Assembly (NCBI GenBank): GCA_965655095.1
Contig: CBFHFQ010000247.1
Coordinates: 1-64,000, forward strand
DNA: 64,000 bases
Reading direction: 5' to 3'
Source of the DNA: Haplodiscus bocki
Lineage: Eukaryota
Program-made: the position numbers and the translations under genes
The notes under the pieces: generated by a model
Database searches by the model: none
Seen by the model: only the letters and a program-made list of their open reading frames with translations
Told to the model about the DNA's origin: nothing
Shown here: one piece after another, positions 10,400-60,365 of the stretch
Numbering within the stretch: the stretch's first letter is position 1
Layout of the letters: the number at the start of each line of letters is the position of its first letter

Positions 10400-12000
10400 C
10401 AATGTCTTTACATTCAAACTCTGCAGAGAGGGCAATGAATTTTCTTTAAAGATTGTATTGACTACCAAACGGATAAACATGAAAACAGGAAACAAAACAA
10501 AGCTCTAACTTTAAATTTTTTAGAAATCTCAACTTTTTGAAACCTTAGTTTCCCTGTGGTCACTAAAGGTCCAATTAACCAGCTTTTGAATGAAAGCGTT
10601 ATAATTTTGTAAACTTTCATCGTTTTAGCAGGTACAATTTAACTGTACCAACTCCCAAAAACGCTATAATCTCGTAAATTGACCACTGGATATCGAAACT
10701 GGGTCGCTCTCATTATCTGATCTAAATACCAACCCACTGATTTATATTCGTTTTTTCATAGCTTTATTTTGGAACTGAATTCTAATTGGATTGTCGTTGT
10801 TGAACCAGCAATTATAAAAATTCGTTCAAAAGTCCACGAATACGAGAGCTGAATAATTAACTTCTCTTGCTTATACAATGTGAAACACACCCAATCTTGA
10901 TAAACTGTTACCACTGAATTCTTTTTTTCACATCAAAACTTTGGAGCTGTTCAATTTTTGGATAAATTGAAATCACTTCCCTGTGGTCTTTCAAATTTAA
11001 TAACAGGACTACGGTAGTCACCTTTGAGGTTTTGAACTAAGACGGAAAAACATACCTCACATAAAAAAATTCGGTGTAATCATAATTTACGTAAGTTATG
11101 TATTTGCTAATCACTTTAGAGATTACATAGTCACAGTTTTAACTCCAAAAAGACGCTCAATTGTCTGTAAACTCATTAATCCACCACTGGATATGGAATA
11201 TTGATCGTCCTCACAATTTAATTACAGATAGAAAAACCGAATATCTCAATACTGAAATTGCATACTTCTGTACTCTGTCTAATAGTAGAGAGTCTCCAAA
11301 AACTTCACAGGCTACTTTGGACAAATAGACATGTTCAAGTACAAAAGAAAATCTTGGAACCCATCTGCGATTGTATTTGCATGATAGCCCTGAAAATTGG
11401 TCTATTCAACTACATTTCTTTGCTTATGTTTATAATACTCAACCCTTGTCACATCTGCTTGTGCCACAATAAGAAAAAATGTTCATGCGCAACTGCGTTT
11501 TCCTCCGAATTTTCAACCAAGTTTCTCTCGAAAACAGTTTTGTGAATGTACTATACAATACTTCTCCGACTTACCACCTCCCTCATTTTATCAATCCAGT
11601 TATTTAAACCCTCTGTTCCATAGCATTCGGTTGAGATCAATTTCTACTTCGTTTATCGCTATTGAAACAGTAATGCTGAGAATTTGTGCAGACATTTATG
11701 AAACTCGCTAGAAGAAATAAATTTTCTTGCATATACAATGCAAGCCAACCCAATCTTGAAAAACCATTGTCTTTACACTCATTTGTTCTATATTGAAATT
11801 TTCAGGCTGTTCAGTTTTCAGATAAACTGAAACCATTTTAAATTGATCCACTCAAAATTGGTAACAAGGCAAAGAATGTCATCTATTATCTTTTAACATC
11901 CATACAGTGAACAAAATTCTGTAACAACTCATGATTTTGATATATCAGATTTGATTTAATCAACGTATATACTTCATACCACAGTTGTGAACTAGGTTAT
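10400..12000 (+). pseudogene. Retroviral-type integrase relic, core and C-terminal part present twice in tandem
   Basis: xxTKGPI at ~10560. HHWI...ITDRKTEYLNTEIA at ~11180-11260. The C-terminal SH3-like segment (AVQFxDKLK) occurs at ~10945 and again at ~11805. Confidence 0.6.
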
Positions 12001-15950: not shown

Positions 15951-18900
15951 TACCAAAACTTCGTGCATTAAATTATCTGAAATTAATGAACCGTGAAGAT
16001 CACTGCCCATTGACAAATGTCAAATCGAATTAGCTGAACCATAAATAAGTTCTACTGTTCCTTCTACCTATCTGCATCAGACAAAAGTATGAACTGCAAA
16101 CTCTCCTTTAGATAAAAACAAGACGACGTCGTCAATTCTGACCTTACTCTCTGGCAATACTTTGCAAACATTTGTTAAAACTACCTATCACTCAGAACCA
16201 CCCTACCTCTGTATCATGTATAATCATGGAAAATCTCAAGCAATATGATCAAATAAACAAGCCTGCAAACTGAACAAGAAAATTATTGAAATATATAATG
16301 ACGAAACATAGTTATTAGAGTTGAGAAAAGATTTGAATTTCTGATTTTCTCTGAGATTCTGGAATCTTTCATTTTTTCTCTATTTCTCGTCACATCAAGT
16401 TCTTCCTTAAAGTTCTGAAAAACGAACTTCAATTTAATCCACGTCTCAAAAGTCACTTTGTTCATCACTGAAAAAATCCAAGACATTTTGTTTTGTGCGC
16501 TGCAAATAAGTACTCTTCCAAACATAAAATCGACTTTGTGCTTTTTGCTGCAACATTAATCACCTTTCTGCACTAATGATCATGTACTTTCGAAGTTTCT
16601 TCGTTCAATTTGAGCGTCGAGTACAATGGATCTAAGCGAATCTCAACCGCTCGATACAACTCATGTCTCCTGCTTTTCCAATCGTCAATAAAAACAAAAA
16701 CTACGCAATATGAAAATCACTGGAAAAACTTTGAAAGTTTGTCTTCCTCCCACTGAATTTGTTTCCTAACCTCTGCTAATCAATGTACCGATTGACTCTA
16801 GCGAAACTGTATCACCGGAAAAACTTATTTCTGACTTTTCTGCAAAAACAAAACCAAAAATTGATATCAACAAATCTTTGTACGGTTCTGATACTTCTCG
16901 GAACGATGGAAAGGGAACTCAACAAACAACTGGTAACGCTGATTCAACTGCTCGAATCAAACCAAAAAACTTGTGAAGCTGATTGTTCAAGGTCGCCCAA
17001 AAAAAATATTTTCAATGATCCTGCGTTCTTAACTTCAAAATTTATGCCTCTTACTCTGAAGTTGTCATCGAAACCTGATTTACATCGAAAGGATTCTTTA
17101 ACAACTCAAATGTAAACTGAAAATTTTCAATTCAAATCTCAAAAAGTTTCGCTGTATATGGTTTCATCACCGTATAATAGTCAACTTTCATCTCAATGCA
17201 AATCACTAAAAGGCTCATTATATCTTGTATAGGTTTAGTAGAGTAGCCCTATAAGAGTACTGGACTAAAATTATTCAAACACTCTTCACTCTGCCATTGA
17301 AATTTGGCATTTGGTCCCTCTGTAATCGATTTACACACTGGTGATTCGAATCCAAATGGTGAATCTCCGAACGGAAAAAACGTGTCCATGAAGAGAAATA
17401 TAAACTTTCTGGGGAAACAGATAACCTTCCTCCCAACTTCACAAAAAAATTGTTTCCCAAATTAGAAAGTTTACATCCCAATTTCACTTAATTTATAAAA
17501 TGATTGGTTCGCTCAAAGATTTATGATCCTCTGGAATAAGTTTGATAACACCAAATAACTTTTTGATACGGGTCTGATTTTTCCTAGAAATGCCTCTTTT
17601 CTATTGATTACGCGAATTTTGATCCGGACTGCAATCCAAAGAAAAGTTCTCATTCTTATCCACACTTGTCAAGATACTTTGATCATTCTGTAAATGATAT
17701 ACAACGAACCCTGAAGACATACACTGGTCATATTAACACTAAACTCATAGTGAAATTTTTTTTTTTGACTACACAATCAATAACATTCTATTCCAAGAAA
17801 AAATCGGGACAATTCACATACTAATTCTCAACCTGCATTTTAAGCTCGATTTTCCTCTCCTGCAAAATTCTATAAAAATTTCAAAAGCAAAAATGAACCT
17901 ATCAATATTGATCAATCAACTGACTTTCAAAATACGTTTGAGCACATCAAACAATTTGACGATTGAGTTGGACTGTACCAAGTTAAGAACTCTGATATAT
18001 TTGAAAGTGAACTCCTGAAAAAAGTTCATGACAGATATCAGGCAGCATTTTCGCGTGTGCAAATCTCAAACTGAGACTGAGAACAAAGCAACAATCTTTA
18101 GGTCAGTTGCATTCTACTGCCTTACAGATTTTCACAATAATTTTTCCTTCAAAGTTTTAACACTGAAAGTTATTCAAAAATGAAATTTTCCATATAAGTA
18201 AAAGGAAGTTTTCAATGTAAATTCTTAATTTTTTACACCACGGAAAGACTTTTCTCGTATTATATATCAAGGGTATTTTTTTCTAGCCGTTTATGATCCC
18301 AATTACTAAAGACTTCCGAAAAACTCCGAACTTTACGGGATAAGACTTCTGCAACTAACACTTCATTTTTGCAAACTCTTCTCGCATATCCGTCTGGAAG
18401 TGATGTTTACATTTTCACCTAGTTCCCACAATCAACCGACAAGTTCCGTGAAAGTCCGAATACAGTTCCAAACAGCTGCCCTGCGAGTACTACTTCAGGA
18501 AACTCTTCGAGTGTCCACGGAAAAACCTGAAGATTGTGACAAGAATTTCTGTAATGGAAAAAGTTTCCATCGTTTTCAAGTACTTTTTTTAAACTCTTCT
18601 TACCTCAACCCAATGATCAAGCGGATTCTATTCCTCCTTTTAAATCTCTGTTGCTACACGTGGTAAATCAAAATTAACCATTGAAATTTGTCAAGGATCA
18701 AAATGACCCTGATGTTGAACAAATAAGAAGGGAAACTTTCATCGTCTCAACTGAATCGGAATTTGTTACATGATCAATTCCTGAAGCTTCTCCGAAACAG
18801 AAATACTTAAGATTTGAAGAATCTTTCAGTAACCCTGAAAACGTTTTGAACCAAACCGCATTACCTACTAGGCAAAAAGTTTCACTGAAATTTGATGGTG

Positions 18901-19699
18901 ATGATGAACTTTTTTCTGCAAGGCATGATACCTTGCTTAACAGTGTTCTTGTTAATTATGCACATGCTTATTTCTTTTCGTTTCATACTGGAACTCGGCC
19001 GCGTCAAGAGCCTTCAGGAAGAATTAAAAATATTTTTCATACCACTGATGGTCCAATTGAACCTTGTCCTACGATTCCACACAATCACTGGCATTCTCTA
19101 CAAAAACAAACGCTGCAAAAAAATCTCTCAGTCAGAATTTTACCAACCGGCCACGCGAAAACAATAAGATTTGGAAAACTAATCCTTTCACACATACTCC
19201 TCGGAAGATTAATGGATACTGGAAAATTATAAACAATAACTCTGAAGGTTTTTATAATTCAAAACTTAATTTTTTTTAAACCTACCATTGTAACTCTGGA
19301 AAAGTCTTCTTTCATGTCTGTACAAAGAATTCCTGGCTCACTGGCTCTTAACTGGCTTACTGGCTTTTTACTGGGTTTCTGGTTCCTTATTTTTCTGGCT
19401 CTGTACATTCAGAGACAAAATTTGCTTCTGTACTTTTTCCTGCTCAAGCAAAGATAATGAATTTTTTTTGCTGATCTGCAACTGTTCAAAAGACCCGTGT
19501 GTTTTGCGTTCAAGGTGCACATAGTAAAAACTACCGACACGATCATAGGAGTTGGCATTCATATCAATGCTCTTACCGAAAGGAGTGGATCTTCTTAAAC
19601 GTAAATCTAAGATTCCAAACATCCTTGGGACGGATAATTCTGAACTAAGCTAAACTTCCTTTAAAGATTTTTTCACCAAATTGGATAGATTGGGTTTTC

Positions 19700-21400
19700 A
19701 GGTCGAAATTGAAAAGAGACAAACTGAATTCACTGTAAGGAAAATGAAGATTGTGCAAACTGTTTTACTCACCCATCAACATCTTAATTATAATTGGATT
19801 ATTTCTCCCGCTGATACAAATACCAGATGTTCTGATAAACAAGAATTTTCTATCGACAAAGGTAGCGAGTCAATAATTATTGAAGATGGATTGGTCGATT
19901 CTGATTTTAAGCATGATTAGTAAAGCCTAGAATGTCATACCCTTACGGGATTTTTTTGTGATGGTTTCTTTAAACCAACACTAAAACATCTTTTTACAAC
20001 TGTTTGGTTTCCTGAGAAATTGAATTTAACTTTTCACGTCTCTGAGTTCATCGAAAATATGTCTAAACAGAAAAATTATTACTGCCTAGAAACTAGAACT
20101 TTTTTCAACAGTACTGAAAAAAACACTGAGAAAGCAGAAAATAGATTATCGCTATTTTTTTAACTGTTCTATGTCACCACTGGGAACCAATACTCCATTT
20201 GTTATCACGATTAGGAAGTCTTCCACAAGGAAATCTTTTTTTAAAGAAAACCTAACTTTCTAAACGGAAAACCATTTTGCTTCAGGTTTCAAGGTCTCCG
20301 CCATTCATCTTTGACTCTGCTGCAAAGTAATAATTTTCTCCTCCACTGAGCATTTCAAATAGTTTCGGCCTTGGAGACTATGATCCTCTTTTCATAACAA
20401 AGATATATTTTTCTATCAACTATGTCCTCAGTTTCTGATCATACGGAAAATGAACAAAATACACCAAACTTGCGATTTAAAACGAACACAGTTGCTAGCT
20501 ATTTTGCCAATGTCCGTAAAGAGACCACAATTTGCTGATCGCTTCCCGCTGAAAACTGCAGAAATTTTCTGGTTAAAGAACTCTCCACTGCTTAGCGATT
20601 TGGTTTTCGTAGTGTTTTCTGTTTGAGCCTGATAAACGTTTTGACCATATACCCATATACTATCAGGTCACCCTATTGTATATTGATCCTTGACAAATAT
20701 TTATTTACGCTACTCCTATACCTTGTCACAACAATCCGCAAAATGTTAAAACCATAGATCTTGATAATGATTTACTTTTTTCAGTAACGTCGACACCTTT
20801 ATATTGAGCTAATCTAACACTCTTTGAACTAAAACAGATTCAATCTGCAAAGATCCCGAGTACTTTCACTGCACAAGAAGCTGGATTTTTCTCCAATCCT
20901 GACTTGACTGAATTGTGGTACCGTGTTATTTTCACATGATACTGCCACACTATACTGAAGCCTTTCGTAAAATCAATAACGTTTTTTTTTTCATTCACTT
21001 CCGAAAAAAACCCAACTGACGTTTGTTTGAGTAGTGATAGAATTCGATTTAATGAATACGAAGTTTTAAAGGTCGGTGTACTTGATCACATTTCAAGCGT
21101 TGTTCCTCTGTTTGAGCTGGACTGGTTTGTTGATGCCTTTATTTCATCCTTTTTACAATACGTGATTACGTTCCAGCTGAAGTTTTTTAGTTCTAGGGCG
21201 TTTTAGTATAGACCCTATAAAAATATAGTCAAACTGAGTTTGATCGAACACAGTTTCTTCAAATGTAACACATCCGAAATATTAACTGATTCACAAGATG
21301 CTGTTCGTGGAAAAAAACAACGGAAAAATTTGGAACGTCGTGGTGACGTCCCTGAGTGTTGTTCAAACAACACTAGCTGGAAAAGTATTGAAAAAATTAA
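19700..21400 (+). pseudogene. env-like glycoprotein relic, copy B
   Basis: Homologous to copy A. CDGFFKPTLKHLFTTVWFPE at ~19955-20015, and FDHIPIYYQVTLLYIDP...YATPIPCHNNPQN at ~20640-20745. Confidence 0.55.
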
Positions 21401-24400
21401 AAAATAAAACATATTCCATGCCTAAGACTTCAGACACATTTGAACTAAGCAGCATACTGAAAACCGAGAAGTGTCAATTTAAAACAACTGAACGTGAGAA
21501 GTTTGTTAGTCTTCTTACTACCTACCTATTTAACACAAAATTGTCAAATGCAAACTCTATTGGAGACAAAAACCAAATAGCGTCGTCGTTTACGACCCAA
21601 CTCTCCGATAAAACTCCACAATTTTTTGTTGAAAGTTTTTATCAGCCATGACCACCTCACCTCTGTATCAAATTTACACATGAATGGTTTCCCGAAACAT
21701 GAGCAAATAAACAATACTTCTAACTGAAAGAACTGTCATTGCAGTTTATGGTGATGGTCTCTATTTATTAGGTTTTTAAAAAGCACTTTCTTCAAATGTT
21801 AACAGAGTGACAGTGCATTATTGTATTTTTTTCACTTGGATCGTGAGAAGTTTTCAACTCCCGCATTCTCTTTCAGTTTCCCCTTGTATCAGGTCTGCAA
21901 CACGTTCTTCTTTGAAGACTTTGAAACATAATCCTTGCTTTATTTTTGACGTCAAAAGTTTTCAACACTGAAAATAAAACACTATTTTGAGATTTCAACA
22001 ATTTTTTTGACTCTAAAACATTTCATCTGTGATTCCCTTCTTTTAACTTTTCCCTACTTAAATCAAGTGTCAAGTATCACTGATTAAACAACAACTCAAT
22101 CGTTTGATAGAAAACGATGTTTCCATTTCTGCTCGTAAAAATTAGGATTCTCTCAGATGATTCTCTTCAATGAACGTTGGATTATTCTTTTCCTTCCACT
22201 GACTTCTAATCTTAACCTCTCGTTGAAACATTACGAAGTGATTGTACAAAAACTGTATCTTCTTATAAAAGTCGCTCACTGTTTTCTTCATCAAGCAAAA
22301 ATTCAATCACTGAAACTGAGAACTCCTTACATGGCTCTCAGACCTCTCTACTTAAAGGAAAGAAAATCAAGAAGAAAATCGGAAAATTTTCAATGCAGCT
22401 CGCAAAACACGCTCGCTAAAACAAAACATGTGAAACCGATTCATCAGAATCTCCAATACGAAAAACAATTTTTTTGACCCTGCATTTTGGAATTTGAAAG
22501 TTAGACTCCCCACTCTGAAGCCACCAAATAACATGTTTTTTACAAAAAAACTTCTTTAACAGGTCAACCTTCTACTGAAAAGTTCAATTCAAGCCTCAAT
22601 TGACTTCGCGGTATATGGTTTTGGCACCGTATAGAAAACATCCTAATCCAAATCGATAGAGTGGTTTTTATGATCTATATGCGTTTGAGCATTTAGAACC
22701 ATTTGAAAGCTGGGCTTCAAACAATCAAAATGTTTTCAATCTGCAAGTTTATTTTGTACGCCCTAGTGTCTTTGACCTACATAGCGATGATTCAAATACA
22801 AGCATTCAATCTGTCCTTAAAAAACGTGTCAATAATGAGACGTTTAAACGCTTTTGAGCTAAACTTCCTCCCAATTTGAGAAAGAATTTCTTCTGTGAAA
22901 AAATTAATTTCAGATATACTTCACCGTTTTGTTTCTTCTAAAAAATGAATCTTTCACATACAATTGTTTCTCTGAGAAGTTTCGATCCAATTAAACAATA
23001 ATGTTTTTTTTACTCTAAAGGATCCTTCGGCTAGACCTTCTATCCTTCTACAAGAACGTTTCTTTTCCTGTTACTCAACGTAAATGATCCTATCTGTAAT
23101 CCAACTAAAATCTTCCATCAATTTTTACACTTGTGAAACGTCTTTGATCACCCAATGAGTGATCGAAGGTCGAAAAACTACAATGGCCTTGGTTCAAACC
23201 ATTTTAGGCATTCTGAATTGTCTTTTTGGCTGCACAATCAACAACTTTCTTTTGGTAAAAGCAGTGTGGCCACATGTCGCAAACTGCATCCTCTACTCAA
23301 GTTACACAGTCCTGTACAACAATTTATGGAATCATCAACCCGGAAGTCGAAACTATTCATAATGAAAAAATACCTGATTTTCAAAAACTTTATTACCCTA
23401 TTAAACAAATTGGCGACTTGGATGAATGTATCCACCTAACAACTGAGAACTATCTGGTAATGACACTATGAAGATATTTCGTCATTGATACCTTGTGAAC
23501 CCTTTTCTTGTGCAAATTTGCAAACGCGTCTCAAAACGTTTCACCACTCCTCAATTGAGCCCCAAACCTCTGTCACAATTCTGAAAAAGCTTTACACTTG
23601 AACCTTCCTTCACATTCAAAAAACTGAAAATGCAACTTTCCTTCAAAAATGTATCCCTGAAATCTTTTCAGCAACAAAACTTCCTTCGAAACAACACAAA
23701 CTTTTCACATACAATTCTATGTTATACACCGGAGAAAAAATTCGTTTTTTCTGAACTTACCAATCGAAAAAATTGGAAAAAAACCATTCATGACTGTTCG
23801 TTATTCAAACTTTTGAGGAACTCCAAAAAAACTGTGCATTTGAATATATCTGTTTTTCCTTTAACCACTATTTATTTTGATTAAACAACCTCTTCTCGTG
23901 TCCACCTGATAGCGATGATCACATCTTCGCTTAGTTACCCTGACCAACTCAAAGATCTTCAACTTTTGGAAGAAAAAGTCATGTTGCTGTTTTATGAGTA
24001 TTTCTCATAAATGTTGCCCGTCCACTAGGGGAAAAACTTGATGACCACGACAAGGACTTCCCCAACGCTACAAATTTTCACAGATGTCACGTCCATCTTC
24101 TCGGATTTTCCTCGGTCTTTTATGTATTGAGCAAATTGACTCTGATTCTCTGCTTAGCACTTTATTGGTACATCTGGTAAACCAAAATCATTTAGTGAAC
24201 ATTCCTATTGATAATCAAAACAACGAAGCAGATGCTGAGCAGATCACAAAAACGTATTAACATTGCTTTAACCAAAACTGAACTCAATACATCATCTAGT
24301 TTTGAAGCTTCTTCAAAAAATATCTCTTCTACACATTTCGGATTTTTTTGTAACGCCCAAGAGCCTCAATACACAACTTACAAAAGCTCCAACGCATTTT

Positions 24401-39351: not shown

Positions 39352-39551
39352 NNNNNNNNNNNNNNNNNNNNNNNNNNNNNNNNNNNNNNNNNNNNNNNNN
39401 NNNNNNNNNNNNNNNNNNNNNNNNNNNNNNNNNNNNNNNNNNNNNNNNNNNNNNNNNNNNNNNNNNNNNNNNNNNNNNNNNNNNNNNNNNNNNNNNNNNN
39501 NNNNNNNNNNNNNNNNNNNNNNNNNNNNNNNNNNNNNNNNNNNNNNNNNNN
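39352..39551. other. Assembly gap (200 N)
   Basis: Run of N. Confidence 1.
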
Positions 39552-39689: not shown

Positions 39690-40490
39690 CTGTCTTAATA
39701 CATTGATGGGTAGTGTACGCTAACTTTTTACTTTGCTGAAGTACATGCTGTTTCTTTACATTGTTGAGCTTTACCCAAACTTTTTACAATGCTGAGCTAT
39801 ACCCAATTCTAACACATTGTTGAGGTATACCCTATCTTATTACATTGCTAAGCAATTCTCAAAGACTAATACTTTGCTGAGCTATACCCAATCCTAACAC
39901 GTTGTTAAGATATAGCCTATCTTAATACATTGCTGCGGAATTCCCAATTTGAATACAAACTGAGCTATACCTAATCCTAACACATTGTTGAGGTATACCC
40001 TATCTCATTACATTGCCAAGCAATTCCCAAATACTAAAACATTGCTGAGCTACACCCAATCCCAACACATTGCTAAGATATAGCCTGTTTTATTACATTG
40101 CTTAGCATTTCCCAATTTCAAGACATACTGAGCTATACCCAATCCTAACACATTGTTGAGGTATACCCTATCTCATTACATTGCCAAGCAATTCCCATAT
40201 ACTAATACAATGCTGAGCTACACCCAATCCTAACACATTGTTAAGGTATAGACTGTTTTATTACATTGCTGAGCATTTCCCAATTTCAAGACGTACTGAG
40301 CTATACCCAATCCTAACACATTGTTGAGGTACACCCAACTTTGGTTTATTGCTGAGGTAAACCCTAACTCATTACATTACCGATTTATACTCAGTCCTAA
40401 CACCTCGTTGAGGTATACCAAATATTAATCCATTGCTGATTTGTACCCGATCTTAGTACATTGTCGTACCATGGCTGATCTTAACATACT
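39690..40490. repeat. Tandem minisatellite, 28-bp monomer with 168-bp (6-mer) higher-order repeat
   Basis: Monomer is approximately TGAGCTATACCCAATCCTAACACATTGY. The higher-order unit restarts at 39793, 39961, 40129 and 40297, an exact 168-bp period. Monomers are more degenerate at both edges. Confidence 0.92.
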
Positions 40491-41411
40491 GCTGTCAGAT
40501 TGCGGGAAACGTTGTCGCCAGCCAATCAGAATCGAGCATTTCGTCAGCCGATAGCACAATCAAAAATCAACCTACACCTCTGTTATTCAAACCGTAGCCC
40601 GCAGAGAAGAATTAAACCCTTGAACCAGGATTTTCAAGATATAAATCCTAAATGCGATTAAGTTTCTATTAGCCTTTAGTATATATCCATATTTTCATAT
40701 TTATATTTTGCTTGTCATGAACTTTTGGCACCTTCCCCTTTTTGCTGTTTTATTTTGTTGCTATTTTTAAAATGATGTCATGATGACACAATGTAAAATT
40801 CGGCCCTTTGATCTTCCAACTTAAATTAAATTGGCAGATATGACGTCAGGGAACTGGGCTTCCCGATTGGTCGACGGACGTGAGGTCAAAACAAGGGAAG
40901 CGTGACCCACGACTGACCGAGAGCTGAAATCAAAAGAAATATAATCATTTGGAAAAACAGTTGCTCAAACATTCATTCCAACTGTTAATTTTCGTTTTGA
41001 GTTATTAAAACTTCCAATAGTTTTAGTACTTTAAATTATCATCACGTTGTTGTATTATTGTCGATGCTGCTATCTCAAGCATATTTCAGTTAATAAAACA
41101 AATATGCTTTCTACTCGCAAAAAAGACAGTCAAATAGAAGGCTCCTCAGCCAATTAGATGACTCCGATCAAGATATCATTATTGGCAACACTGCTGGTGA
41201 AAGGCAAGAAAAGACTATAGTCAAGGAAGGTACTGGTGACCGGGACTTTACCGAGAACAGTTAAAATGTAACAAATATGTTGTAAAAAAGTAGCTATAAT
41301 TTTGTCAAAGGAATCCGAAGCGTTCGTTCAAATCACGTAACTCTTCTCAAGACCTAAAGGTTTAGTTTTCTGAAAATGCTGAAGCTTTTGAAAAATACAG
41401 ACAAAGATACA

Positions 41412-41740
41412 AGTAGTGTACAAAAAAGCATTTGACACCAAGCGCGCAGGCCGCATCCTCGTCCGACACCAACCACTGAACAAAATTATAAAGATACAAA
41501 TCCTAGTTGTATAATTATAAAATAACTAATAATTAAAAAAATATATTATAATTTTCATATAAATTAATGGATACAATAAAAAATTTATACACTCTAGGAT
41601 TTGTTTTTTTTTGTGATTTTGTTCAGTGGTTGGTGTCGGACGAGGATGCGATCCTTTGTGACTGATGTCAAATGCTTTTTGTACACTACTTAGTCGTGAA
41701 AGTATACAATTATGTTGAATTAGAAATAAAATTGAAATTA
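41412..41740 (+). repeat. Left terminal inverted repeat (internally palindromic over 41412-41690)
   Basis: Reverse complement of 59240-59568, with scattered mismatches. Confidence 0.96.
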
Positions 41741-41869
41741 AAAAAATTTCTTTTAATTTGATAGTACTCTATCATGATATCAAACATTTCTTTCTCCTCT
41801 TAAAATGTATTTTTAACATGTCTAGTTTTTTCGAATTTTTCTTTTACTTTTAGCAACCATTTAATAATA

Positions 41870-44800
41870 CTAATCCCATGGGATACTTTCAACATTATTT
41901 ATATAACATCGCTTATTATCGAAAAAAGATAGTGTTGATTTTTTAACTTCTTGAAGAACCAATTCATGATTAATTGATCTAATATTATAATTATTACATT
42001 CTTGTTGATATTCTCTACCAAATAAACAATTGTAATATTCTTCAAATTTAATATTCATCGATTGAGATTTAGATATACCTTTCAATTTAATTTTACTATC
42101 ATTACCACATTTAAACGCATACAATTTACTTCGTAGACAAACAAATTCATCAATCCAAATACTTTTAGGAGTCTCAATTTTGAAAAATCCAATTATTGTT
42201 TTATTTTTATTACTGAATAGTTCATGATTTTTATTTAAGTTACTGAAATCAAATATAACTTCTAAATTTTTTAGGTCTTTGATAATATCTTTTGTTTTTA
42301 CACTTAACACAAAACTATCAGTATCCATATAATGTAATTGTATATTTTCTTGTCCAAAATAAGGTTGTAATTTATCATAATATGTTTCATACATTAATAA
42401 TTTACTCAATTCTAATACGGAAAATCCCAAGTATATCGGCTTATCCATAAGAACTTCATTTTGTTTGTGTGTATACCTATCACAATTTTCATATGACATA
42501 TGAATTCCATTGAAAGTTAATTTGGATTGTTGTTTTATTTTTTCTCTGAAGTCATCCTTCTTAACAAATTTAATTTTTAAACGATTTCGTACATTTTCTA
42601 TTGTCTTACCATAAAATGCATTATTTAATAATTTATAGAAGTCTTTTTCAAAATCATTCACTGCTTGGTTTCTTTTCTGGATATTTAAATTTATATATTT
42701 CTCTAACCATCTACTCTGTCTAAATGATATTATCTCATGAACTTTATCAACAATCATTCCCTGTCTAACATAAAATTTTAACATCCTATAATGAATCAAA
42801 TAATTTTTCTTATCCGACCAATCACATATTAATTTTTTATTTTGTATATAAGCATCAGGTATAATCTCTTTCATATAATCACTAAAATTATCAGGAATAA
42901 TTTTTTTATTCACAGGAGCAAACAGGAATTTTTTTGCTTTCTCTTTTATATTATCTGGATACTTTAAATCAGCTTCAATGAAATAACCAATGTCACTAAC
43001 ATCTGGAGTATTTAATATATCTGCTAAAGTAACATTATTATCAAATTTAATTTCATTATAGGAAATGGTTCAGACATTGAATGGCCATATAAATTATTAG
43101 CATCAATATACAATATCTTTTTATTATCATCTGATTTAATATATCTATCACCCATTACAGATGAGATACCTCCGCGTATATTATTCTCTAATAACAAAAT
43201 CTTATCTTTATCTTGAAGTGTTTGTAAGTTTATTCCCCTATATTTTAATCCGCACTGCCAAGTATAATCAGGTAAACTAACACAATATAAAGGATTGATT
43301 TCAAATTCATTAAAAGATACTATAATAAATTTCTCAAACACACATGTAAGCAAAAGTACATCACATTTCAAAAATATTTCCTTTAATTCTTCACCTTTTT
43401 TAATTTTGAATTCGCCAATAATATTCATTGTTCGTTCTATTTCTTCATCATCAGGACATTTATCTTTTAATTTACTGAAGAAGTCTTCTTTCTTAAAATT
43501 ATTAACAGGTTTTTGATAATCATCAATATTATTAAAATATTCATATGGGTATGCCAATTTTTTAGTTAAATATTTCCACATAACAGGAAATCCTGTTTTT
43601 AATATTTTAAGATCTTTTTCACCTATATATTTAAGTAAAGCTTCTTCTAAATTTTCAATTTCATCTGGATAATATTTTTTCAAATTTTTAATAGTCCTAT
43701 CATCTTCTTCTAAATTTTCAATTTCTTCTGGATAGTTTTCTTCTATTCTATTAACAATATCCATTATTTCATCACTACCAACAGTCTCTTTTTTCAAATT
43801 TTTCAATGTTTTTTTACTATTATCAACTAATGTCTTAACTAATGAATCCAAACCACTTGATAAGAATCTATAGCTATCAATGAATCTAATACAAGCATAA
43901 GTAACTGATATATACTCATCATTCGTTTTAGGTATTATATCAAATTTTACTTTATTTTTTTTATCAATCAATTTTTAAAAAACATATGACAATCATAATT
44001 ACTAAAATTATGAAATATAATTGGTATAAAATTACTTTGATCTTGAGTAACATTATAATTACATTTACTATGAGCCGAACCTCGATAATTTCCAGTCAAG
44101 TGACAATGATCTGTAACTTTATCAGATTCAATATTTTTTTCACAAAATCGACAAATGTTATTATTTCTAAAATCTTCTTCATCTTTTTGTTTCATAATGA
44201 TATCTTTCTTAGTGTTTTTAAAATAGAAAGCCATTTATTTTCTAATTTTATAACTTCATCTACAAACCAATCAACATTATTATGAGCCAGAGGAGATTTG
44301 TGATAACCACTTTGTAAAACATCATCCAATTCTGATACTCTTCTATACCCATTAAGTATTGGATTTTGTTTATAAATATTCTTTATTTTATTACCTATAA
44401 TAGAATTATCTTTCTCATTATCAGCTTCGAAATCAGCATAAATTCTAAAATATAATGGATTCTTATCAAAATGTTTTTTCCAATAAAGATGTGATTCAAT
44501 TGAAGTTTTAATAGTAGTTATTTTATCATCTCCAGATTTTTCTTTATGTTTCATTAACATATTTTCGCTTGTATATGAACTCAAGCATTGTCTACAAATA
44601 ATTTTTTTGTTATGATCCCCTAGAAACACATCTAATTTTTTATTGAGAATATAATGATTTTTGTAAATTGCTAAATCAATGACTCTATCTGAATTATTTT
44701 TACTAATCTCAATAGGTATCAATTTTTGTTTCCATTGATTCTGATCTTGATAAAAATTTATTTCAAAAATATTAACAGATAAATTATTCAATTCATTAAT

Positions 44801-45711
44801 ATTATGTACATCACTACATCTGAATCCTTTACTAAAATCGAAGCCTTGAATTTTTAACTCAGCAAAATTTTGTCTAAAATTTGAGGCTCTGTTAGGATGA
44901 TTGTTATTACAAGGATGTAAATACGCCAATATTGACCATAAGGAACAATATTTATCAATATTTTCAATATTCAAGATAGCGTTTGATCTCAAAGGAAATT
45001 TGATATAATTTGAACCATTTAATTCATTAGTTTTATAAAAAAATATTGTCATTGAATTAATTTTATCAAATCTCCATCCAGAATCTTTCATCTCTTGCTG
45101 TTGTTTTTGATATTCTAATGGTGATACAACATTAATATTATTAATATCTGTTTCTGTTAAATTATGATTAATATTCAAATTAATAATGAATTCAATTTCA
45201 TCTAATAATTCACCATCTTCATCTTGTTTATCAAATCTTGCCGAAAATACTGTTTGATTTTTGAATTTATATTGATTTATTATTCTAGCGTAAATAACAG
45301 ATAATTCTTTCATTATTTTATTAATAAATCTAAATTCTATCCCAAATTCTGGAAAAGTAGGTGTTATAGTTAATTTAGAATTTGTATGATGAAGATTATG
45401 ACTATCTAGATTAATTTTATATGCAACTTTCAAATTTCTATCAGTAAAAAAATTGGATTAATCATCTTCTTAGCTAATTCTTTATTTAAATGTCTATCAT
45501 CTAATCTAATGTTATCTCGTGCTAGCTGTCTCAACGGTTTAGGATTATATGTTTTTTTAATTTTATTTTCAACAGGTTCTTGAAACAACCATTCCGGTAT
45601 AATCAATTCATTCTGTTTCATATTTTCTATGTGTTTTTTACTTCTCAGGTGTTTTATATAGGATGCTTTATGAATATCAACATTACAAATCTCACAACTG
45701 CGGCTATTCAT
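41870..45711 (-). pseudogene. polB: Protein-primed family B DNA polymerase (pPolB), broken into five ORF pieces by frameshifts
   Basis: N-terminal C2H2 finger (CEIC...HLRSKKH), OTU-like Cys/His segment (DKYCSLWSI...HYIL), ExoI YADFEA, EndoVII-like DHCHLTGNYRGSAHSKCN, ExoII HNFSNYD, RGGIS, motif A YIDANNLYGHSM, motif B KLLNNAFYGKT, motif C YMDTDS, and KLKGI. Confidence 0.96.
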
Positions 45712-45777
45712 TTTTGCGTCTTTTTATATAGTAAGAATTACTTGAAATGATTTATTCAAGATCTCAAAATTCTCCAC

Positions 45778-46605
45778 CTACCTTAATATTGTATCACCAG
45801 GTTTAATTCCAAAATAATGATTAGGAGTTATGAAATCTTGATAATTAATATAATCATTATAATAATTTTCATATTGATTATCTATGTCTTTATTTCCATC
45901 TCTAATTTTAATAACAGTATAATATAAATCACAATAATTTATATTCATATTCTTAACTTGAGGCTTAGTCTGTAAAAATTTTATCAACAATATTACTTCA
46001 TGATAAATTTTACTAATACCTTGAGCATTTTTACTAAAAGGATATTGTTGAGTTTGAAAGTTTTTATCTTTCATTTCAATATAATAATTACTTATAATTT
46101 TATAAAATTTTAAATTTGTTTTACCTTTTAATTCTTGTAATTTATTAATCATATCTTCTGTTGAATTATAATCAGTATTAACCATATTTATATATATTTC
46201 TCTAATCTTTTTATTAGCATAATTTAATCTAGTTGAAAAATCGTGAGATTGTCTATGAACTTTTTTGTCTATCTGATGTTTTTGCTTGTTGACTATATAT
46301 TCACAATTTGTGCAATAAAAACCTTTATCAAATTCTAACCAATTATTTTGATTACAAGTAGGACAATTTGGTAATTGTTGTTGAATAATTGCTTGCTTAC
46401 TTTTAGGATAATTTTTTACTACTAATTGATCATCATTTTTGATAACTTTTTGATTCTTTCTATTCCGAGTCTCATTTTGAACTTGATATTGAGTTCTGAG
46501 AGATGTTAGAGGTTCTCGTTTGCGTAAAATAATATTTTCAGTTGGATGAATTTTATATCTGTGATCCTTCACTTCTACGTAGTATTCACCGTTTAGATAT
46601 TTCAT
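45778..46605 (-). CDS. Polinton accessory protein with zinc ribbon (CPTC...CTNC), 275 aa
   Basis: Intact ORF with TAAATG start and two CxxC pairs. Paralogous to the adjacent 172-aa ORF. Confidence 0.75.
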   Translation of the reverse strand: MKYLNGEYYVEVKDHRYKIHPTENIILRKREPLTSLRTQYQVQNETRNRKNQKVIKNDDQLVVKNYPKSKQAIIQQQLPNCPTCNQNNWLEFDKGFYCTNCEYIVNKQKHQIDKKVHRQSHDFSTRLNYANKKIREIYINMVNTDYNSTEDMINKLQELKGKTNLKFYKIISNYYIEMKDKNFQTQQYPFSKNAQGISKIYHEVILLIKFLQTKPQVKNMNINYCDLYYTVIKIRDGNKDIDNQYENYYNDYINYQDFITPNHYFGIKPGDTILR

Positions 46606-46760
46606 TTAAATGATATTTAAGTACTTACAAATATAAGAATATATATATTTATTATTCGTATATGAATACATGTATTTATACTATATTATTCAATAGCAAT
46701 TTAGAACAAGTTAACTTATTGATACAAGTATAATATTATTCAATATTCGTATATGAGTAA

Positions 46761-47279
46761 TTAAGTGATATCAATATTATATCTACAAATACTTCCCATT
46801 AAGTCGTAGTAAATTATATTCTCATAATAGGACCTATCATAATAACAAATCCATTTCATTAATCGAATACTATCATGTCCTATTCTATAAATACCAGTTG
46901 AAGTTAGAGAATATTTGTTTTGTTCGAAATTGGGATTTTTTAACATGTCTTTATATATATCGATTAAAGTATTATTTATTTTTAAATTTTTATTTTTTAA
47001 TGTTGATAAAACTTTGTATATTTCATCATAATCATCACCTTCATAATTTTTATATACATCTACACATATGGAAAATATTTTAACTTCCGCGTATTTCGAT
47101 CGATTGATAAAATTAATTTTTTTCCGTTGTATTTTAGAGAGTTCATGCTTGAGTTTGTTTACGTTATACCCGCAGACAATACAAGTAAATTCATATTCAT
47201 ATGGAAGCAAAGTATTGCGTTTGCAATGACCACAATTTTTGGCATACTTTTGTATAATTTCATCTTCAGTTAATTCCAT
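46761..47279 (-). CDS. Polinton accessory protein with zinc ribbon (CGHC...CIVC), 172 aa
   Basis: Intact ORF with two CxxC pairs followed by VNKxKH, as in its neighbour. Confidence 0.75.
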   Translation of the reverse strand: MELTEDEIIQKYAKNCGHCKRNTLLPYEYEFTCIVCGYNVNKLKHELSKIQRKKINFINRSKYAEVKIFSICVDVYKNYEGDDYDEIYKVLSTLKNKNLKINNTLIDIYKDMLKNPNFEQNKYSLTSTGIYRIGHDSIRLMKWICYYDRSYYENIIYYDLMGSICRYNIDIT

Positions 47280-47294
47280 TTTTTAAATTTTATA

Positions 47295-48152
47295 TTAGTG
47301 AATTGAATTTAGTTTCTTCATAACTTCATTCTTTTGTTCAAGAGATAGTTTAGTAGGTGAAAGGAGGTTTTGATTATATCTCTCGTGCAAATAATCACTT
47401 CTATAGCTAGGAATAGTATCATGAATTACTTCAGTTATTGTGTATAATTTATACGACCAACTTGTCGAATCACCCTTTGAGAATACTTTTTTAATATCAG
47501 CTGTACGAACTAATTTTCCTAATTTATATTTCGGTTGTTGTTTAACTCTTCGATCTTGAAGATTGGAATAGACTTTTCTTTCATTTAATTTCTTAGAAGC
47601 TTGAAAAGGGGTCATCTTCGTGGAGGTGTGGATTGTATTATTATATTGTTTAATAACAGATGGTAATTCAGATAGCCAATCAGCTCTTCCTTTCTCGAAT
47701 ACTGGTATCTTTAAAAAACTACGTACAGTTCTAATGAATCATTCAGCTATCGAAGGACACTTATCAGTAAAACGAGAATAGTGATGTATAATTTTTGATT
47801 TTAAAAAGTTTCGGAAAATACTATTATAAAACTCAGTACCTCTATCGCTTTCTAATTTGAGAGGCTTTCGTTTTGAGATTGTTAATATATTCGAAAGTTC
47901 GTTTGTGATAGTTTGACTATATTTATTTTTAAGTGGTATAGCCCATAAATATTTTGAGAAGTTGTCAATTATGATGAATATATATCTAAATCCTTTGTCA
48001 TTTGAAATTTTATTGTCAATCATATCGGCAAGATCGATACTCCATAATTCATCAATGTGGTTGTATACTATTTTATTAGTTGGATAATTTTTTCGGGGTC
48101 GAGATGAGTATATTTCATCTATAAAGATTTTAATATCATTCTTCGTGCTCAT
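47295..48152 (-). pseudogene. int: Retroviral-like (rve, DDE) integrase with one in-frame stop
   Basis: WSIDLADM...YIFIIIDNFSKY, ESDRGTEF, then IAE*FIRT (TGA at 47739-47741 replaces the Arg of the conserved ER), then YNNTIHTSTKMTP. Both listed ORFs are in the same frame. Confidence 0.95.
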
Positions 48153-48174
48153 TTAATCTGAGAAATTGATAAGC

Positions 48175-48760
48175 TTTAATGAATTGAAGTTGATAATCTA
48201 GGAAAATTTTGTTGATGATCTTTTTGCAATAAGGGCTGAGTATTCTTCCAGGAAAATGCTTCTTCTAACTCTTCGTCTTTGGATACATCAAATAAAGAAA
48301 TTGCTTTGACATGATCCATCTCAATATTACCCCAATTCATTTCTGGAGTCAACTGCCACTCAATCCATTTTCGATAAAGATCAATGACTATACCTAGGAC
48401 TTCTTTTGTAGAAGAAGATTTTGTTTTTCCTTTTTATGCTTGATGAATTCTTTGTCTCATATTACGAATTAATCGAAAGTTGACATCTGTTTTTATTCTG
48501 TTTTTAACATACTCATTCATTCGGGAACTAATTTGGTTACGATTTTGTTTATTATAAAATTTTTGTTTGTTTAGTAATCGATATTTATTTTCTACATAAT
48601 AGTTTTTATTGTAATTATTTACGCAAAATTTACATTGAGATTGTAATCCATCCTTGAATTTTGTATTTTTATAGAAACTAGATTTTATTGAAATATTTTT
48701 ACAAACACGACATTTTCTAACTAAATCATAATCAAAGAAATCTTTGATACAATTGCTCAT
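48175..48760 (-). pseudogene. HNH endonuclease (phage/giant-virus type) with one in-frame stop
   Basis: CRVC...DGLQSQCKFC zinc finger. Reading through the TAA at 48434 gives KGKTKSSSTKEVLG...TPEMNWGNIEMDHVKAISLFD...FSWKNTQPLLQKDH, the HNH core. Confidence 0.8.
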
Positions 48761-48791
48761 TTTTATTATAATAACTTTATTTGAAATGATC

Positions 48792-49317
48792 TCACATTAC
48801 CTTTAATCGAAGACCATTTCCGTGAAGGTCTGTGAGACTCAATATTTTACTTCCCGTTAACGATTTTAATATATTACTAGTTACTTGAGCTGATTGAGGA
48901 TTTTTAGTCTTCATAGCAACACCAGCTGAAATAATAGGAGTGGCTATTTTCAATTCTGGCTTTAGAAATTTACTCCACGATGTTTGGGATCCTTTGAATA
49001 TGTTTTTTTTTCATAGTATTTTTAAATCCAGCACCTTCCAATTGAAATTGGTTTGGACTAAAAGTGATATATTTCTGACATTTACACTTTGGATTATGGC
49101 ACATATCATGTAATTTGAGCACAGTACAATTTTTATTTAAATCACACCACACTGAGTTACTCATAGCTGATCTATGTCCGTGCGAACATTCAGCATTTTT
49201 AAAAACATCCTTGATAATTTTAACAAGTTTTTTAGTTCTGGGGTTGAATTTTTTATATTCAATAATATTATTTGTATCGCTTTTATGTCTGCCACCAACA
49301 CACCATGTCGTAGTCAT
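48792..49317 (-). pseudogene. Putative virion core / membrane-active precursor protein with adenain cleavage motifs (frameshifted)
   Basis: Cys/His-rich N-terminal part, then LEGA/GFKNTMKK. After a frameshift at the A-run (~49003-49011) it reads IFKGSQTSWSKFLKPELKIATPIISAGVAMK...LTGSKILSLTDLHGN/GLRLKVM*. Confidence 0.6.
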
Positions 49318-49321
49318 TTAA

Positions 49322-50038
49322 TTACTGAAAATCTGAATATTCTGGAGGAGCACTGGGTAAAATATCAATATTTGTTTTCTTTCTAGGTTTAAAAAAGTTA
49401 AATTTAATGTTTATATTTATATTCACATTATTTTTGCTAAAAAAATTATTTAATTTAGTTATTTGTTCTTGACTAAAATTATCTTTACTCATAATATCAC
49501 CGAAAACGTCTTCAACCTTGAATTGTGTATTTTTCACAATTTCAGATCTTTTATCAATATAATGATTATAAATCTTTTTCAACTCTTGTGCTTCTTTTTC
49601 ATCAACCTTCTTATCAAGCATCGATTCTTTCAAAGTTTTTTCATAAAGAAGTGTAATAACATTAATCCAATCTCGTAGCTTAGTATATCTTATTTTTAAT
49701 TTTGATATGTATTCATTAGTGATTAAGATAGCAATACTAGTTAACAAAGCTGTACTGCTTGAAATAATAATAACAGCTCCAGGATTAAACAATCCCAATG
49801 TTGAAGTACTTTTTGCCGATCCTGAGCCGATCACAATTTCGGTGATAAATAACAATGTCTTTTTTTTATTTAAACTTTTAAATTTCTTTTTATAATAATC
49901 ATTATCAACCTTCAGAGATTTAAATAAATTTTCATGATCATGTTTTTCTGTTTGATATTTTAAACTTTTAATTTCGTCATTACGTGTTTTTATTTTTAAT
50001 AATTCTGGTTCGTCTTTTAAATTCGGATAACTTGTCAT
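49322..50038 (-). CDS. Membrane-associated protein (coiled coil plus hydrophobic hairpin; adintovirus 'gasdermin-X'-like) with late-domain motifs
   Basis: 238-aa ORF with hydrophobic segments LLFITEIVIGSGS and GAVIIISSSTALLTSIAILI. N-terminal YPNL and C-terminal PSAPPEY. Confidence 0.7.
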   Translation of the reverse strand: MTSYPNLKDEPELLKIKTRNDEIKSLKYQTEKHDHENLFKSLKVDNDYYKKKFKSLNKKKTLLFITEIVIGSGSAKSTSTLGLFNPGAVIIISSSTALLTSIAILITNEYISKLKIRYTKLRDWINVITLLYEKTLKESMLDKKVDEKEAQELKKIYNHYIDKRSEIVKNTQFKVEDVFGDIMSKDNFSQEQITKLNNFFSKNNVNININIKFNFFKPRKKTNIDILPSAPPEYSDFQ

Positions 50039-50068
50039 TTATTAATAGAAAAATAAGTATTTATACAA

Positions 50069-50296
50069 TTATATTGATTGGTCTGAAAATTGTTTTTCTA
50101 ACAAATCCATCGCGATATGCTCTTTTAATATTCTCTGTCTGTATAATTTTTCAAGAGCAAGATTTCTAATAATCTCAATTTCATGATCAGTAAATTTGGA
50201 CTGTTTTAATATATTTGGCTCAACTAAACTTAACATTAAAATAAGGCTTCGTTCATGTCTAACATCTTCAAATATACTATTGAAGTAAGCTTCCAT
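50069..50296 (-). CDS. Small hypothetical protein (75 aa), paralog of the adjacent ORF
   Basis: Intact and directly abuts the upstream ORF (TAG-ATG). Shares a YFxxIFE start and hydrophobic pattern with it. Confidence 0.6.
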   Translation of the reverse strand: MEAYFNSIFEDVRHERSLILMLSLVEPNILKQSKFTDHEIEIIRNLALEKLYRQRILKEHIAMDLLEKQFSDQSI

Positions 50297-50539
50297 CTAC
50301 TTATTCAAAATTCTCTCGATAATAGATTCTTCTTCGTTTTTCATAAAAGATTGATAATCTTCAAATTCTTCTAATAATATATTTTTAAACTCTAAATTTA
50401 AACGATTAACATTATTTTTACTAAATCCTATTTCGTTTAATAAATTTTTATCATTTTGAATTAAAAATATCAACAAAACTATTTTTTTATAATCTTGAAT
50501 AGATTCGAATATATCTTTAAAATAATTTGAGTTATCCAT
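50297..50539 (-). CDS. Small acidic hypothetical protein (80 aa)
   Basis: Intact ORF within the co-oriented gene array. Confidence 0.6.
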   Translation of the reverse strand: MDNSNYFKDIFESIQDYKKIVLLIFLIQNDKNLLNEIGFSKNNVNRLNLEFKNILLEEFEDYQSFMKNEEESIIERILNK

Positions 50540-50569
50540 TTGAAATATATAAAAGTATTTATATGAGTT

Positions 50570-59568: not shown

Positions 59569-60365
59569 GATATAGTGCCAGAAAATGAACTGTTTTTTAA
59601 ATCACTGCCAGTTCTAATGTTTGAATTTAGCGGACCATACAATGAAACACAAATTGGACATGACTTCAGTTCACAACAACCAAAGATTTGATGCTGAAAT
59701 AGATAAAGGATCTACCAAGTTGATATGGTACCCTACATCATCCTTTTCGATGTTCAACAGTTGGCGATATATTTTGCGATGCACATTTTGTATGTGTTTT
59801 CTATTTTAACGCTTTATGTGTTAAAAGCAGGCAAAGTTTTTAAATGACTTGAATCTATACTACTGAATAATCAAAGTCCTGATTTTGAAGGTAAGTCTGA
59901 AAAACTGCAGAGATTCTCAGTTCCCATTGCTCCGCCATTTCTTCCGTGCTATTTTCACTTTCATTAATTAAAAAATCAAAAGCACGTCAAATACAATGCC
60001 AAGAAAGTCCTAATTGTCAAATTTTTAATTGCCCCGCCCGTTTTTGCGCAGATTCGCGGAGTGTTTTGGAGAAACAACGAGTCGGAAGTGTTTGCTAGCT
60101 TCGCTCTCATTGCCTTGTTGGTATGAGTGAAGAATTTAGATGCTTACTTTCCCATATACTAAACATGTATTTTCAAATGTCATGATTGTGTGGATTGTGT
60201 GGAAGCAACACCATAGCGGTATAATTGATGTTTACTTTACTTGAAGTGGCCGCCACCTGGTGATTTTCACCGAAGCCTCCACTGGATTTAAGAGTCTAAT
60301 TGCCATTTCCATGTTGGAATAGGGGCAGATATCCTCTGTTTGGCCTGTTCAAATTTCAATTTCAG

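Follow-up and report, generated by a model that had tools for sequence, protein, structure and literature searches.

Quasi-palindromic hairpins at both ends of a decayed Polinton in a 64-kb window of Haplodiscus bocki DNA

Introduction

The model of Polinton replication is inferred from the genes and ends of these elements. Long-range terminal pairing is familiar from the adenovirus panhandle, the bulged left end of MVM and LuIII parvoviruses is resolved by a bubble mechanism, and the composite transposons Tn5 and Tn10 have four ends, outside and inside, of which the outer and inner ones differ in a short patch. Polintons (Mavericks) with a Beta-class family-B polymerase (PolB) are 13–25 kb in size, carry terminal inverted repeats (TIRs) and (AGT)2 ends, and are flanked by a 6-bp target duplication (PMC8097293, and the available parts of PMC8502044 and bioRxiv 10.1101/2023.08.22.554363). 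The available parts of these sources also give, for this adintovirus-type group, an rve integrase, capsid, ATPase and protease, and a PolB without PF03175 that has vOTU-like motifs and an HNH-type insertion; the Beta class is described as having a PolB that carries an OTU and does not belong to the PF03175 type (PMC8502044). The (AGT)2 end motif of Polintons is the jumping-back motif of protein priming (PMC8097293).

The virophages of Halocafeteria seosinensis and PLV subtype 4 have been reported to carry TIR palindromes adjacent to the target duplication; the available text of that preprint proposes hairpin priming and places the palindromes preferentially with non-pPolB replication genes (bioRxiv 10.64898/2026.07.28.741278). 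The hairpin telomeres of parvoviruses, such as the bulged left end of MVM and LuIII, provide a 3' fold-back primer from a bulged, imperfect stem that is seen in one orientation (PMC1185569, in the part available). Casposons are self-synthesising transposons with a pPolB, and some of their TIRs contain internal palindromes (PMC4046053, in the part available).

We examined a Polinton within a 64-kb stretch of Haplodiscus bocki DNA (the whole stretch analysed, hereafter the window), which is like the Beta-class elements in the features named above and differs from them in a TIR that opens with a 279-bp palindrome in which the terminus recurs. It resembles the Halocafeteria virophage and PLV ends in that its TIR has a palindrome adjoining the target duplication; in the available text, however, those palindromes are 52 nt in the pictured subtype, come from a screen that allowed gaps of at most 10 and occur mostly with non-pPolB genes, whereas the arms described here are about 100 bp, enclose a 70-nt loop, carry a fixed bulge and accompany a polymerase of pPolB type with protein-priming motifs. 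Unlike the parvoviruses, the window element is double-stranded when integrated and has an integrase and protein-priming motifs, and no NS1/Rep nickase was found in it. Casposons differ in being prokaryotic and in using a Cas1 integrase, and whole-terminus fold-backs are not described in the available part of PMC4046053. The element shares with Tn5 and Tn10 its four ends and the short patch by which outer and inner ones differ; unlike theirs, its end modules are 279 bp and encode no transposase.

A search for the words "palindrom" and "hairpin" in the main text of PMC8502044, PMC8097293 and bioRxiv 10.1101/2023.08.22.554363 gave 0 hits, and terminal palindromes for pPolB Polintons were found neither in PMC11296320, PMC12220804 and PMC12945077 nor in literature searches that took in few subscription papers and no Repbase reports. 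An end structure of this kind thus appears not to have been described, in the sources covered, for the polymerase class to which the element is assigned by sequence; shorter terminal palindromes are known from virophages and PLVs. An initial annotation of the window had stated that Polinton TIRs are usually described as simple inverted repeats; within this virus group, palindromic termini have already been reported (bioRxiv 10.64898/2026.07.28.741278, in the part available).

Results

The window contains a decayed Polinton of 18,157 bp (positions 41412–59568), bounded by AGTAGT and ACTACT. Its outer ends adjoin a 6-bp target duplication with one mismatch (5/6), GATACA on the left (41406..41411, + strand) and GATATA on the right (59569..59574, + strand), in agreement with the initial annotation, which had taken these for true Polinton ends. 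The two ends match at 90.7% as an inverted repeat of 329 bp (41412–41740 / 59240–59568); they also match at 78% as a direct repeat over 283 nt, a relation that had likewise been pointed out. For Polintons/Mavericks the ranges are 100–1500 bp for the TIR, 13–25 kb for the length and 5–8 bp for the target duplication, with an (AGT)2 or (AG)3 end, and the element falls within all of these; it also has the rve integrase, double jelly-roll (DJR) capsid and packaging ATPase genes, of which the first two are broken. The element is a Polinton by the features tested and, as judged from its predicted polymerase, a decayed Beta-PolB Polinton.

The TIR continues for about 50 bp past the hairpin described below, as annotated: the left continuation (41691..41740, +) is 94% identical to 59240–59288, and the right continuation (59240..59290, −) contains a terminus-like heptamer at 59282–59288. 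An older, decayed TIR remnant lies at 41728..41863 (+), ends at the PolB stop and is 71% identical to its right copy (58334..58488, −). The right subterminal region has a unique stretch of 750 bp (58489..59239) that includes approximately three 144-bp tandem units; the difference reflects an insertion on the right or a loss from the left, at a short motif that is shared. A (TA)24 microsatellite lies inside the element (57638–57686). Outside it, a 200-N scaffold gap (39352–39551) is followed by a nested 28/85/168-bp tandem array (39748–40464) 1 kb left of the element, and the left flank has diverged direct repeats (67–69%) in 10727–11838 and 16058–22633, about 860 bp and 5.45 kb apart, within a long stretch of negative GC skew. 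None of nine flanking ORFs gave a Pfam match.

Most element genes, several of them broken, lie on the minus strand; three ORF pieces near 57304–58272 are on the plus strand, opposite to the remaining element ORFs. A Pfam scan of 30 stop-to-stop ORF pieces of the element detected a retroviral-type integrase broken by a stop (47295..48152, −; PF00665, E 1.4e-11), a DJR major capsid protein also broken by a stop (52377..53666, −; PF21738, E 5.4e-12) and an A32-like packaging ATPase (55990..56529, −; PF04665, E 1.5e-11). The product of 51909..52340 (−), which we take from its motifs to be an adenain-like protease, had no Pfam match and was matched by tblastn to ORFs in two of the distant loci described below (L007, L008). 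Neither a Rep/HUH nickase nor a primase-helicase was matched by Pfam among the 30 pieces.

The family-B polymerase gene (41870..45723, −) is broken and spread over several frames, and matches the intact PolBs of loci L011, L014, L008 and L015. It includes the polymerase core, an endonuclease VII domain (43968–44234, −; PF02945 by Pfam) and, at motif level, terminal-protein-like and vOTU-like motifs (44645–45094, −). PF03175 was absent from the 30 window ORF pieces and from 5/5 long related PolBs; the polymerase fits the definition of the Beta-class adintovirus PolB, its OTU being a putative assignment made by motif. Within the N-terminal piece, the Ser-Gly pair S126-G127 is kept in 56/76 and 58/76 aligned relatives, C171 in 61/81 and H268 in 38/62 (relatives aligned from 150 representatives). 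A terminal-protein linking Ser plus Gly and the vOTU catalytic Cys and His are the criteria of PMC11071308 (available part), and these four residues are motif-level matches to those positions, in domains that are predicted. Similar motif pairs were seen in 4/8 long PolB ORFs of the distant loci. The C-terminal piece gave 2018 hits among 5024 candidates, and the best 120 of the 2018 comprised the window's own protein and 119 relatives at 75–84% identity, which suggests that the polymerase protein family is large. PDB sequence searches with the polymerase gave no useful match, a single-sequence fold model of its N-terminus was unusable (pLDDT 32.8), and the Atlas neighbours of one homologue showed PF02945 and PF03175 at a score of only 0.78. 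The short ORF piece 45430–45723, upstream of the terminal-protein-like region, has a C2H2-like zinc-finger pattern by eye and no Pfam match, and a 33-bp tandem repeat lies inside the polymerase gene (43641–43745).

Quasi-palindromes make up the first 279 and the last 278 bases of the element; their arms measure about 100 bp and their loops 70–75 nt (6–7% GC), the arrangement that the initial annotation had proposed for both ends. On the left, the outer arm (41412..41514, +), which starts with the (AGT)2 motif and is the functional element end, pairs with the inner arm (41585..41690, −) across a 70-nt loop (41515..41584, +; 7% GC, oriented like the right loop), and the inner arm ends in a second, outward-facing terminus, ACTACT (41685–41690). 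On the right (59291–59568), the inner arm (59291..59392, +), with the inner terminus ATTAGT, and the outer arm (59468..59568, −), the functional element end, enclose a loop of 75 nt (59393..59467, −; ~6% GC). The element accordingly has the four terminus-like sites that had been claimed. Each stem is interrupted by a bulge; on the left, a GC-rich outer-type sequence (41438..41451, +) is partnered by the inner-type sequence 41651–41665, and on the right the outer-type bulge is 59529–59542 and the inner-type bulge 59317–59331.

DNA folding, the check proposed in the initial annotation, gave −86.1 kcal/mol for the left hairpin (z −18.45) and −97.9 kcal/mol for the right (z −22.32), with 0/200 shuffles as good in either case. 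Nowhere else in the 64 kb is there a long local inverted repeat (the two axes have 33 and 47 exact 12-mer seeds, every other axis 1–2), and the arms of the two hairpins are not perfect copies (80–90% identity). In the computed fold, the 3' end of either single strand is paired to its last base at the left and to within 2 nt at the right, as expected for the fold-back of each end that had been suggested, and the remaining element strand is left as a 5' overhang; such a predicted end could serve for self-priming and would equally be a duplex terminus rebuilt locally. The panhandle is more stable than the two hairpins (−294 vs −186 kcal/mol), and the hairpin is therefore not needed thermodynamically; the local hairpins should nonetheless form ahead of the long-range panhandle.

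The inner termini face outward. They are unable to end a full-length element, and their only options are closure of the 279-bp unit or inside-out pairing; the initial annotation had envisaged full elements that end at the inner ACTACT, which this geometry does not accommodate. A third terminus-like heptamer, AGTCGTG (41692..41698, +; 6/7 like the true end), faces inward and is head-to-head with the inner end. It is present at both ends of the element (41692–41698, 59282–59288), separated from the inner terminus by 1 nt on the left and 2 nt on the right; heptamer-like sites number 31 in 36,302 positions (P ~0.003, calculated post hoc), and it is possible that the heptamer is an older terminus.

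Several other readings of the hairpin region were tried. The DNA behind the hairpin was rejected as a decayed arm copy (204/300 shuffles were as good, and there was no arm similarity past 7 nt). The likeness of the loop to this same DNA was reached by 0/300 shuffles, yet 5/189 element windows scored as well, and it was attributed to AT-richness. Rfam gave two matches, both to miRNA-precursor models and below the cut-off (65.8 vs 230 and 53.3 vs 200 bits), which is what any long hairpin gives. A bacterial promoter/terminator scan, a type ill-suited to a eukaryotic host, was at chance level.

The four arms were aligned from their termini over 98 columns, 94 of them ungapped. Within the bulge, outer is like outer at 15/16 columns and inner like inner at 14/17, whereas the outer and inner arms of one end agree at 9/17, in accord with the outer/inner polarity previously described. 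Six columns distinguish outer from inner arms and all lie inside the 15 of 98 columns that make up the bulge (P 1.8e-4); both the polarity and the orientation of the loop are identical at the two ends (2/2). At each end, 25/26 columns of the terminal 26 nt are preserved in the inner arm. Private changes are commoner in the inner than in the outer arms, as if the inner arms were less constrained.

Two transversions are common to both arms of one end and different at the other end, with pairing kept (41432/41671 vs 59548/59311, and 41478/41624 vs 59502/59358). With 4 left-right differences between the outer arms and 10 between the inner arms in the 94 ungapped columns, independent decay has a P of 0.002–0.004, calculated post hoc on 2 sites, or of 0.013–0.028 for these transversions when six misaligned columns are kept; column 41441 pairs left-outer with right-inner and neither pattern fits it. 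The end-shared transversions therefore imply that the arms of one end copied each other by fold-back or template switching, an indirect indication that sequence has probably passed between them. Such exchange is compatible with replicating elements or later chromosomal events alike. Passive arm-to-arm copying occurs in any quasi-palindrome, and for this reason arm copying shows folding and not function.

No solo unit or further arm was found in the 45,843 flanking bases of the window, which is too little DNA for testing MITE mobility, and neither the 279-bp nor the 278-bp unit has a target duplication around it (the flanks differ). A protein-profile scan of a prokaryotic genome set for same-family DNA returned 0 relatives among 54 pattern matches; the PolB piece had no match in phages and the TIR none in plasmids. 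A degenerate PolB motif scan gave 18 loci (L001–L018) from binned assemblies, all with distant PolBs (31–45% to the polymerase C-terminal piece). This is eukaryotic Polinton-like DNA within 16 bacterial MAG records (three loci in one record), probably from binning contamination. The TIR DNA matches none of the 18, none of them holds both ends, and in none was a hairpin of this size seen at an element end, a weak test where no locus has both ends. The endonuclease VII piece matches 14/18 of these loci, and the domain was found in 5/5 long PolBs scanned; it is widespread and, in this weak sample, does not by itself predict a long hairpin.

Two small hairpins (arms of ~14 and 25 bp; z −7.8, −6.5) occur in L011 and L014, a related pair in which PolB is last, as in the window element. 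Those at L011 10645–10809 and L014 6516–6680 differ by one compensatory change and lie where the similarity of the pair stops, at the apparent PolB-side boundary, where a terminus would be expected. The sole long inverted repeat among the 18 loci (L010 2754–3325) was rejected as a tandem-repeat foldback whose placement at an element end is only putative; its arms consist of short tandem repeats and it is flanked by a 16-nt direct repeat. In L008, AGTAGTA and TACTACT lie 200 bp apart downstream of the genes (5303–5511) with only 7 bp complementary, which may be chance, and the PolB (146–4177) has an N-terminal Rho_N-like domain (PF07498).

Discussion

The element has a hairpin at each end, integrated by its outer ends and keeps a fixed outer/inner polarity. 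Our leading reading, held tentatively and at somewhat less than even confidence, is that protein priming on the displaced strand uses a duplex origin formed locally by the hairpin, the quasi-palindrome folding back when the strand is single. Protein-primed strand-displacement replication would release a single strand, the 3' end of which would pair with the inner arm 279 nt away and rebuild a double-stranded origin without an 18-kb panhandle; the terminal-protein/polymerase would then start the second strand at this rebuilt origin. Origin or integrase factors could recognise the outer arm as the active end by its bulge at nt 27–40. A copy-back mini-replicon that became attached to an older end (the heptamer at 41692) may have been the origin of the hairpin, which TIR homogenisation would then have copied to both ends. 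Such a local origin uses the element's own enzymes, explains why a full terminus is kept in the inner arm, and needs no nick, so that the hairpin would never be inverted and no flip-flop is predicted. We count in its favour the z values of the hairpins, the paired 3' end, the 25/26 terminal columns, the end-shared transversions, the clustering of differences in the bulge, the kept protein-priming motifs, the (AGT)2 end as a jumping-back motif, the agreement of the two ends in polarity and loop orientation, and the smaller hairpins of L011 and L014. Against it stand the single copy, the more stable panhandle, the more changed inner arms and the 18 distant loci with no hairpin of this size at their ends; moreover, arm copying is read post hoc from 2 sites, arises passively too and has a discordant column in 41441, and the terminal-protein and vOTU domains are putative, assigned by motif.

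The same observations may also be read as a historical accident, in which copy-back or end-joining added a 279-bp mini-element to an older terminus and the element replicates by an ordinary panhandle; this we regard as possible and rather doubtful, and we say the same of it taken together with its sequel, in which TIR homogenisation spread the hairpin to the other end and passive template switching keeps the arms alike. The third heptamer, head-to-head with a spacer of 1–2 nt at both ends, agrees with an accident of this kind, as do the older TIR remnant behind the hairpin, the energy of the panhandle, the greater divergence of the inner arms and the 18 distant loci without such a hairpin. The "old end", however, amounts to 7 nt, with no arm similarity past the heptamer (204/300 shuffles); a tight bulge beside near-identical stems is hard to obtain by even decay, and a 280-bp palindrome should be costly to maintain. 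An assembly or read fold-back artefact is very unlikely. Long reads are known to fail at palindromes, but the arms here are 80–90% identical, the loop is unique, the asymmetry is the same at both ends, a target duplication is present, and the sole N gap (39352–39551) is outside the element.

Two further readings give the hairpin a more active part. Members of the endonuclease VII family cut cruciforms and branched DNA, and PF02945 lies in the polymerase; a folded 3' end might self-prime to form a hairpin-closed duplex, which the polymerase's endonuclease VII domain would cut so that ends are regenerated. We consider this unlikely, and equally so when it is joined with a bulge that guides asymmetric resolution, as in the left-end hairpin of autonomous parvoviruses. 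The computed fold has the exact geometry for self-priming, asymmetric resolution of the bulged left hairpin is described for MVM and LuIII, as are flip-only ends (PMC1185569, in the part available), and the same model has been proposed for palindromic virophage and PLV ends (bioRxiv 10.64898/2026.07.28.741278, in the part available). The initial annotation had called the ends parvovirus-like, and of this the 3' fold-back geometry stands; the rest is opposed by the failure to find a Rep/HUH gene among the 30 ORF pieces, by the kept protein-priming motifs and by the agreement of the two ends in polarity (which independent flipping would give in 50% of cases). The endonuclease VII domain, furthermore, does not track the hairpin (14/18 loci and 5/5 long PolBs, with no long terminal hairpin seen). 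That the 279-bp unit is, or spawns, a MITE moved by the Polinton integrase, the element being a composite with outer and inner ends, seems to us quite improbable. Each unit does have two correctly oriented termini with 25/26 identical terminal columns and no coding capacity, and is short, non-coding and TIR-bounded (279/278 bp, ~100-bp arms); with a large protein family (2018 hits) the integrase could possibly be supplied in trans. Both units, on the other hand, lack a target duplication of their own, the 45,843 flanking bases hold no solo copy (weak evidence in so little DNA), and the TIR homology extends beyond the unit. The ends are also direct repeats (78%), and for that reason host recombination between them could leave solo units without transposition; units born in this way could keep the original target duplication and, in contrast to transposed MITEs, would in most cases show the outer-type bulge in each arm.

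The hairpin was seen in one copy, and the sequence does not establish the element as either a MITE or a rolling-hairpin replicon. If the unlikely case held that it represents a hybrid-telomere Polinton lineage, with protein priming kept and bulged fold-back self-priming added, resolved by the polymerase endonuclease VII domain, that unexplained domain would gain a function, and protein-primed replication would be linked to the rolling-hairpin mode; 279-bp mini-elements could be released from the same ends. Tests of terminal hairpins have been called for (bioRxiv 10.64898/2026.07.28.741278, in the part available). The bulge and loop are a built-in marker that tells outer from inner and flip from flop, and counts of isomers and solo units among genomic copies would separate the panhandle, local-origin, rolling-hairpin and MITE models by sequence alone. 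The finding would gain weight were the hairpin to turn up in further copies, or were both flip and flop isomers to occur among them. Should the hairpin prove a feature of the whole family, terminal palindromes would extend beyond non-pPolB elements, and ends of this kind may be placed wrongly by TIR-calling pipelines.
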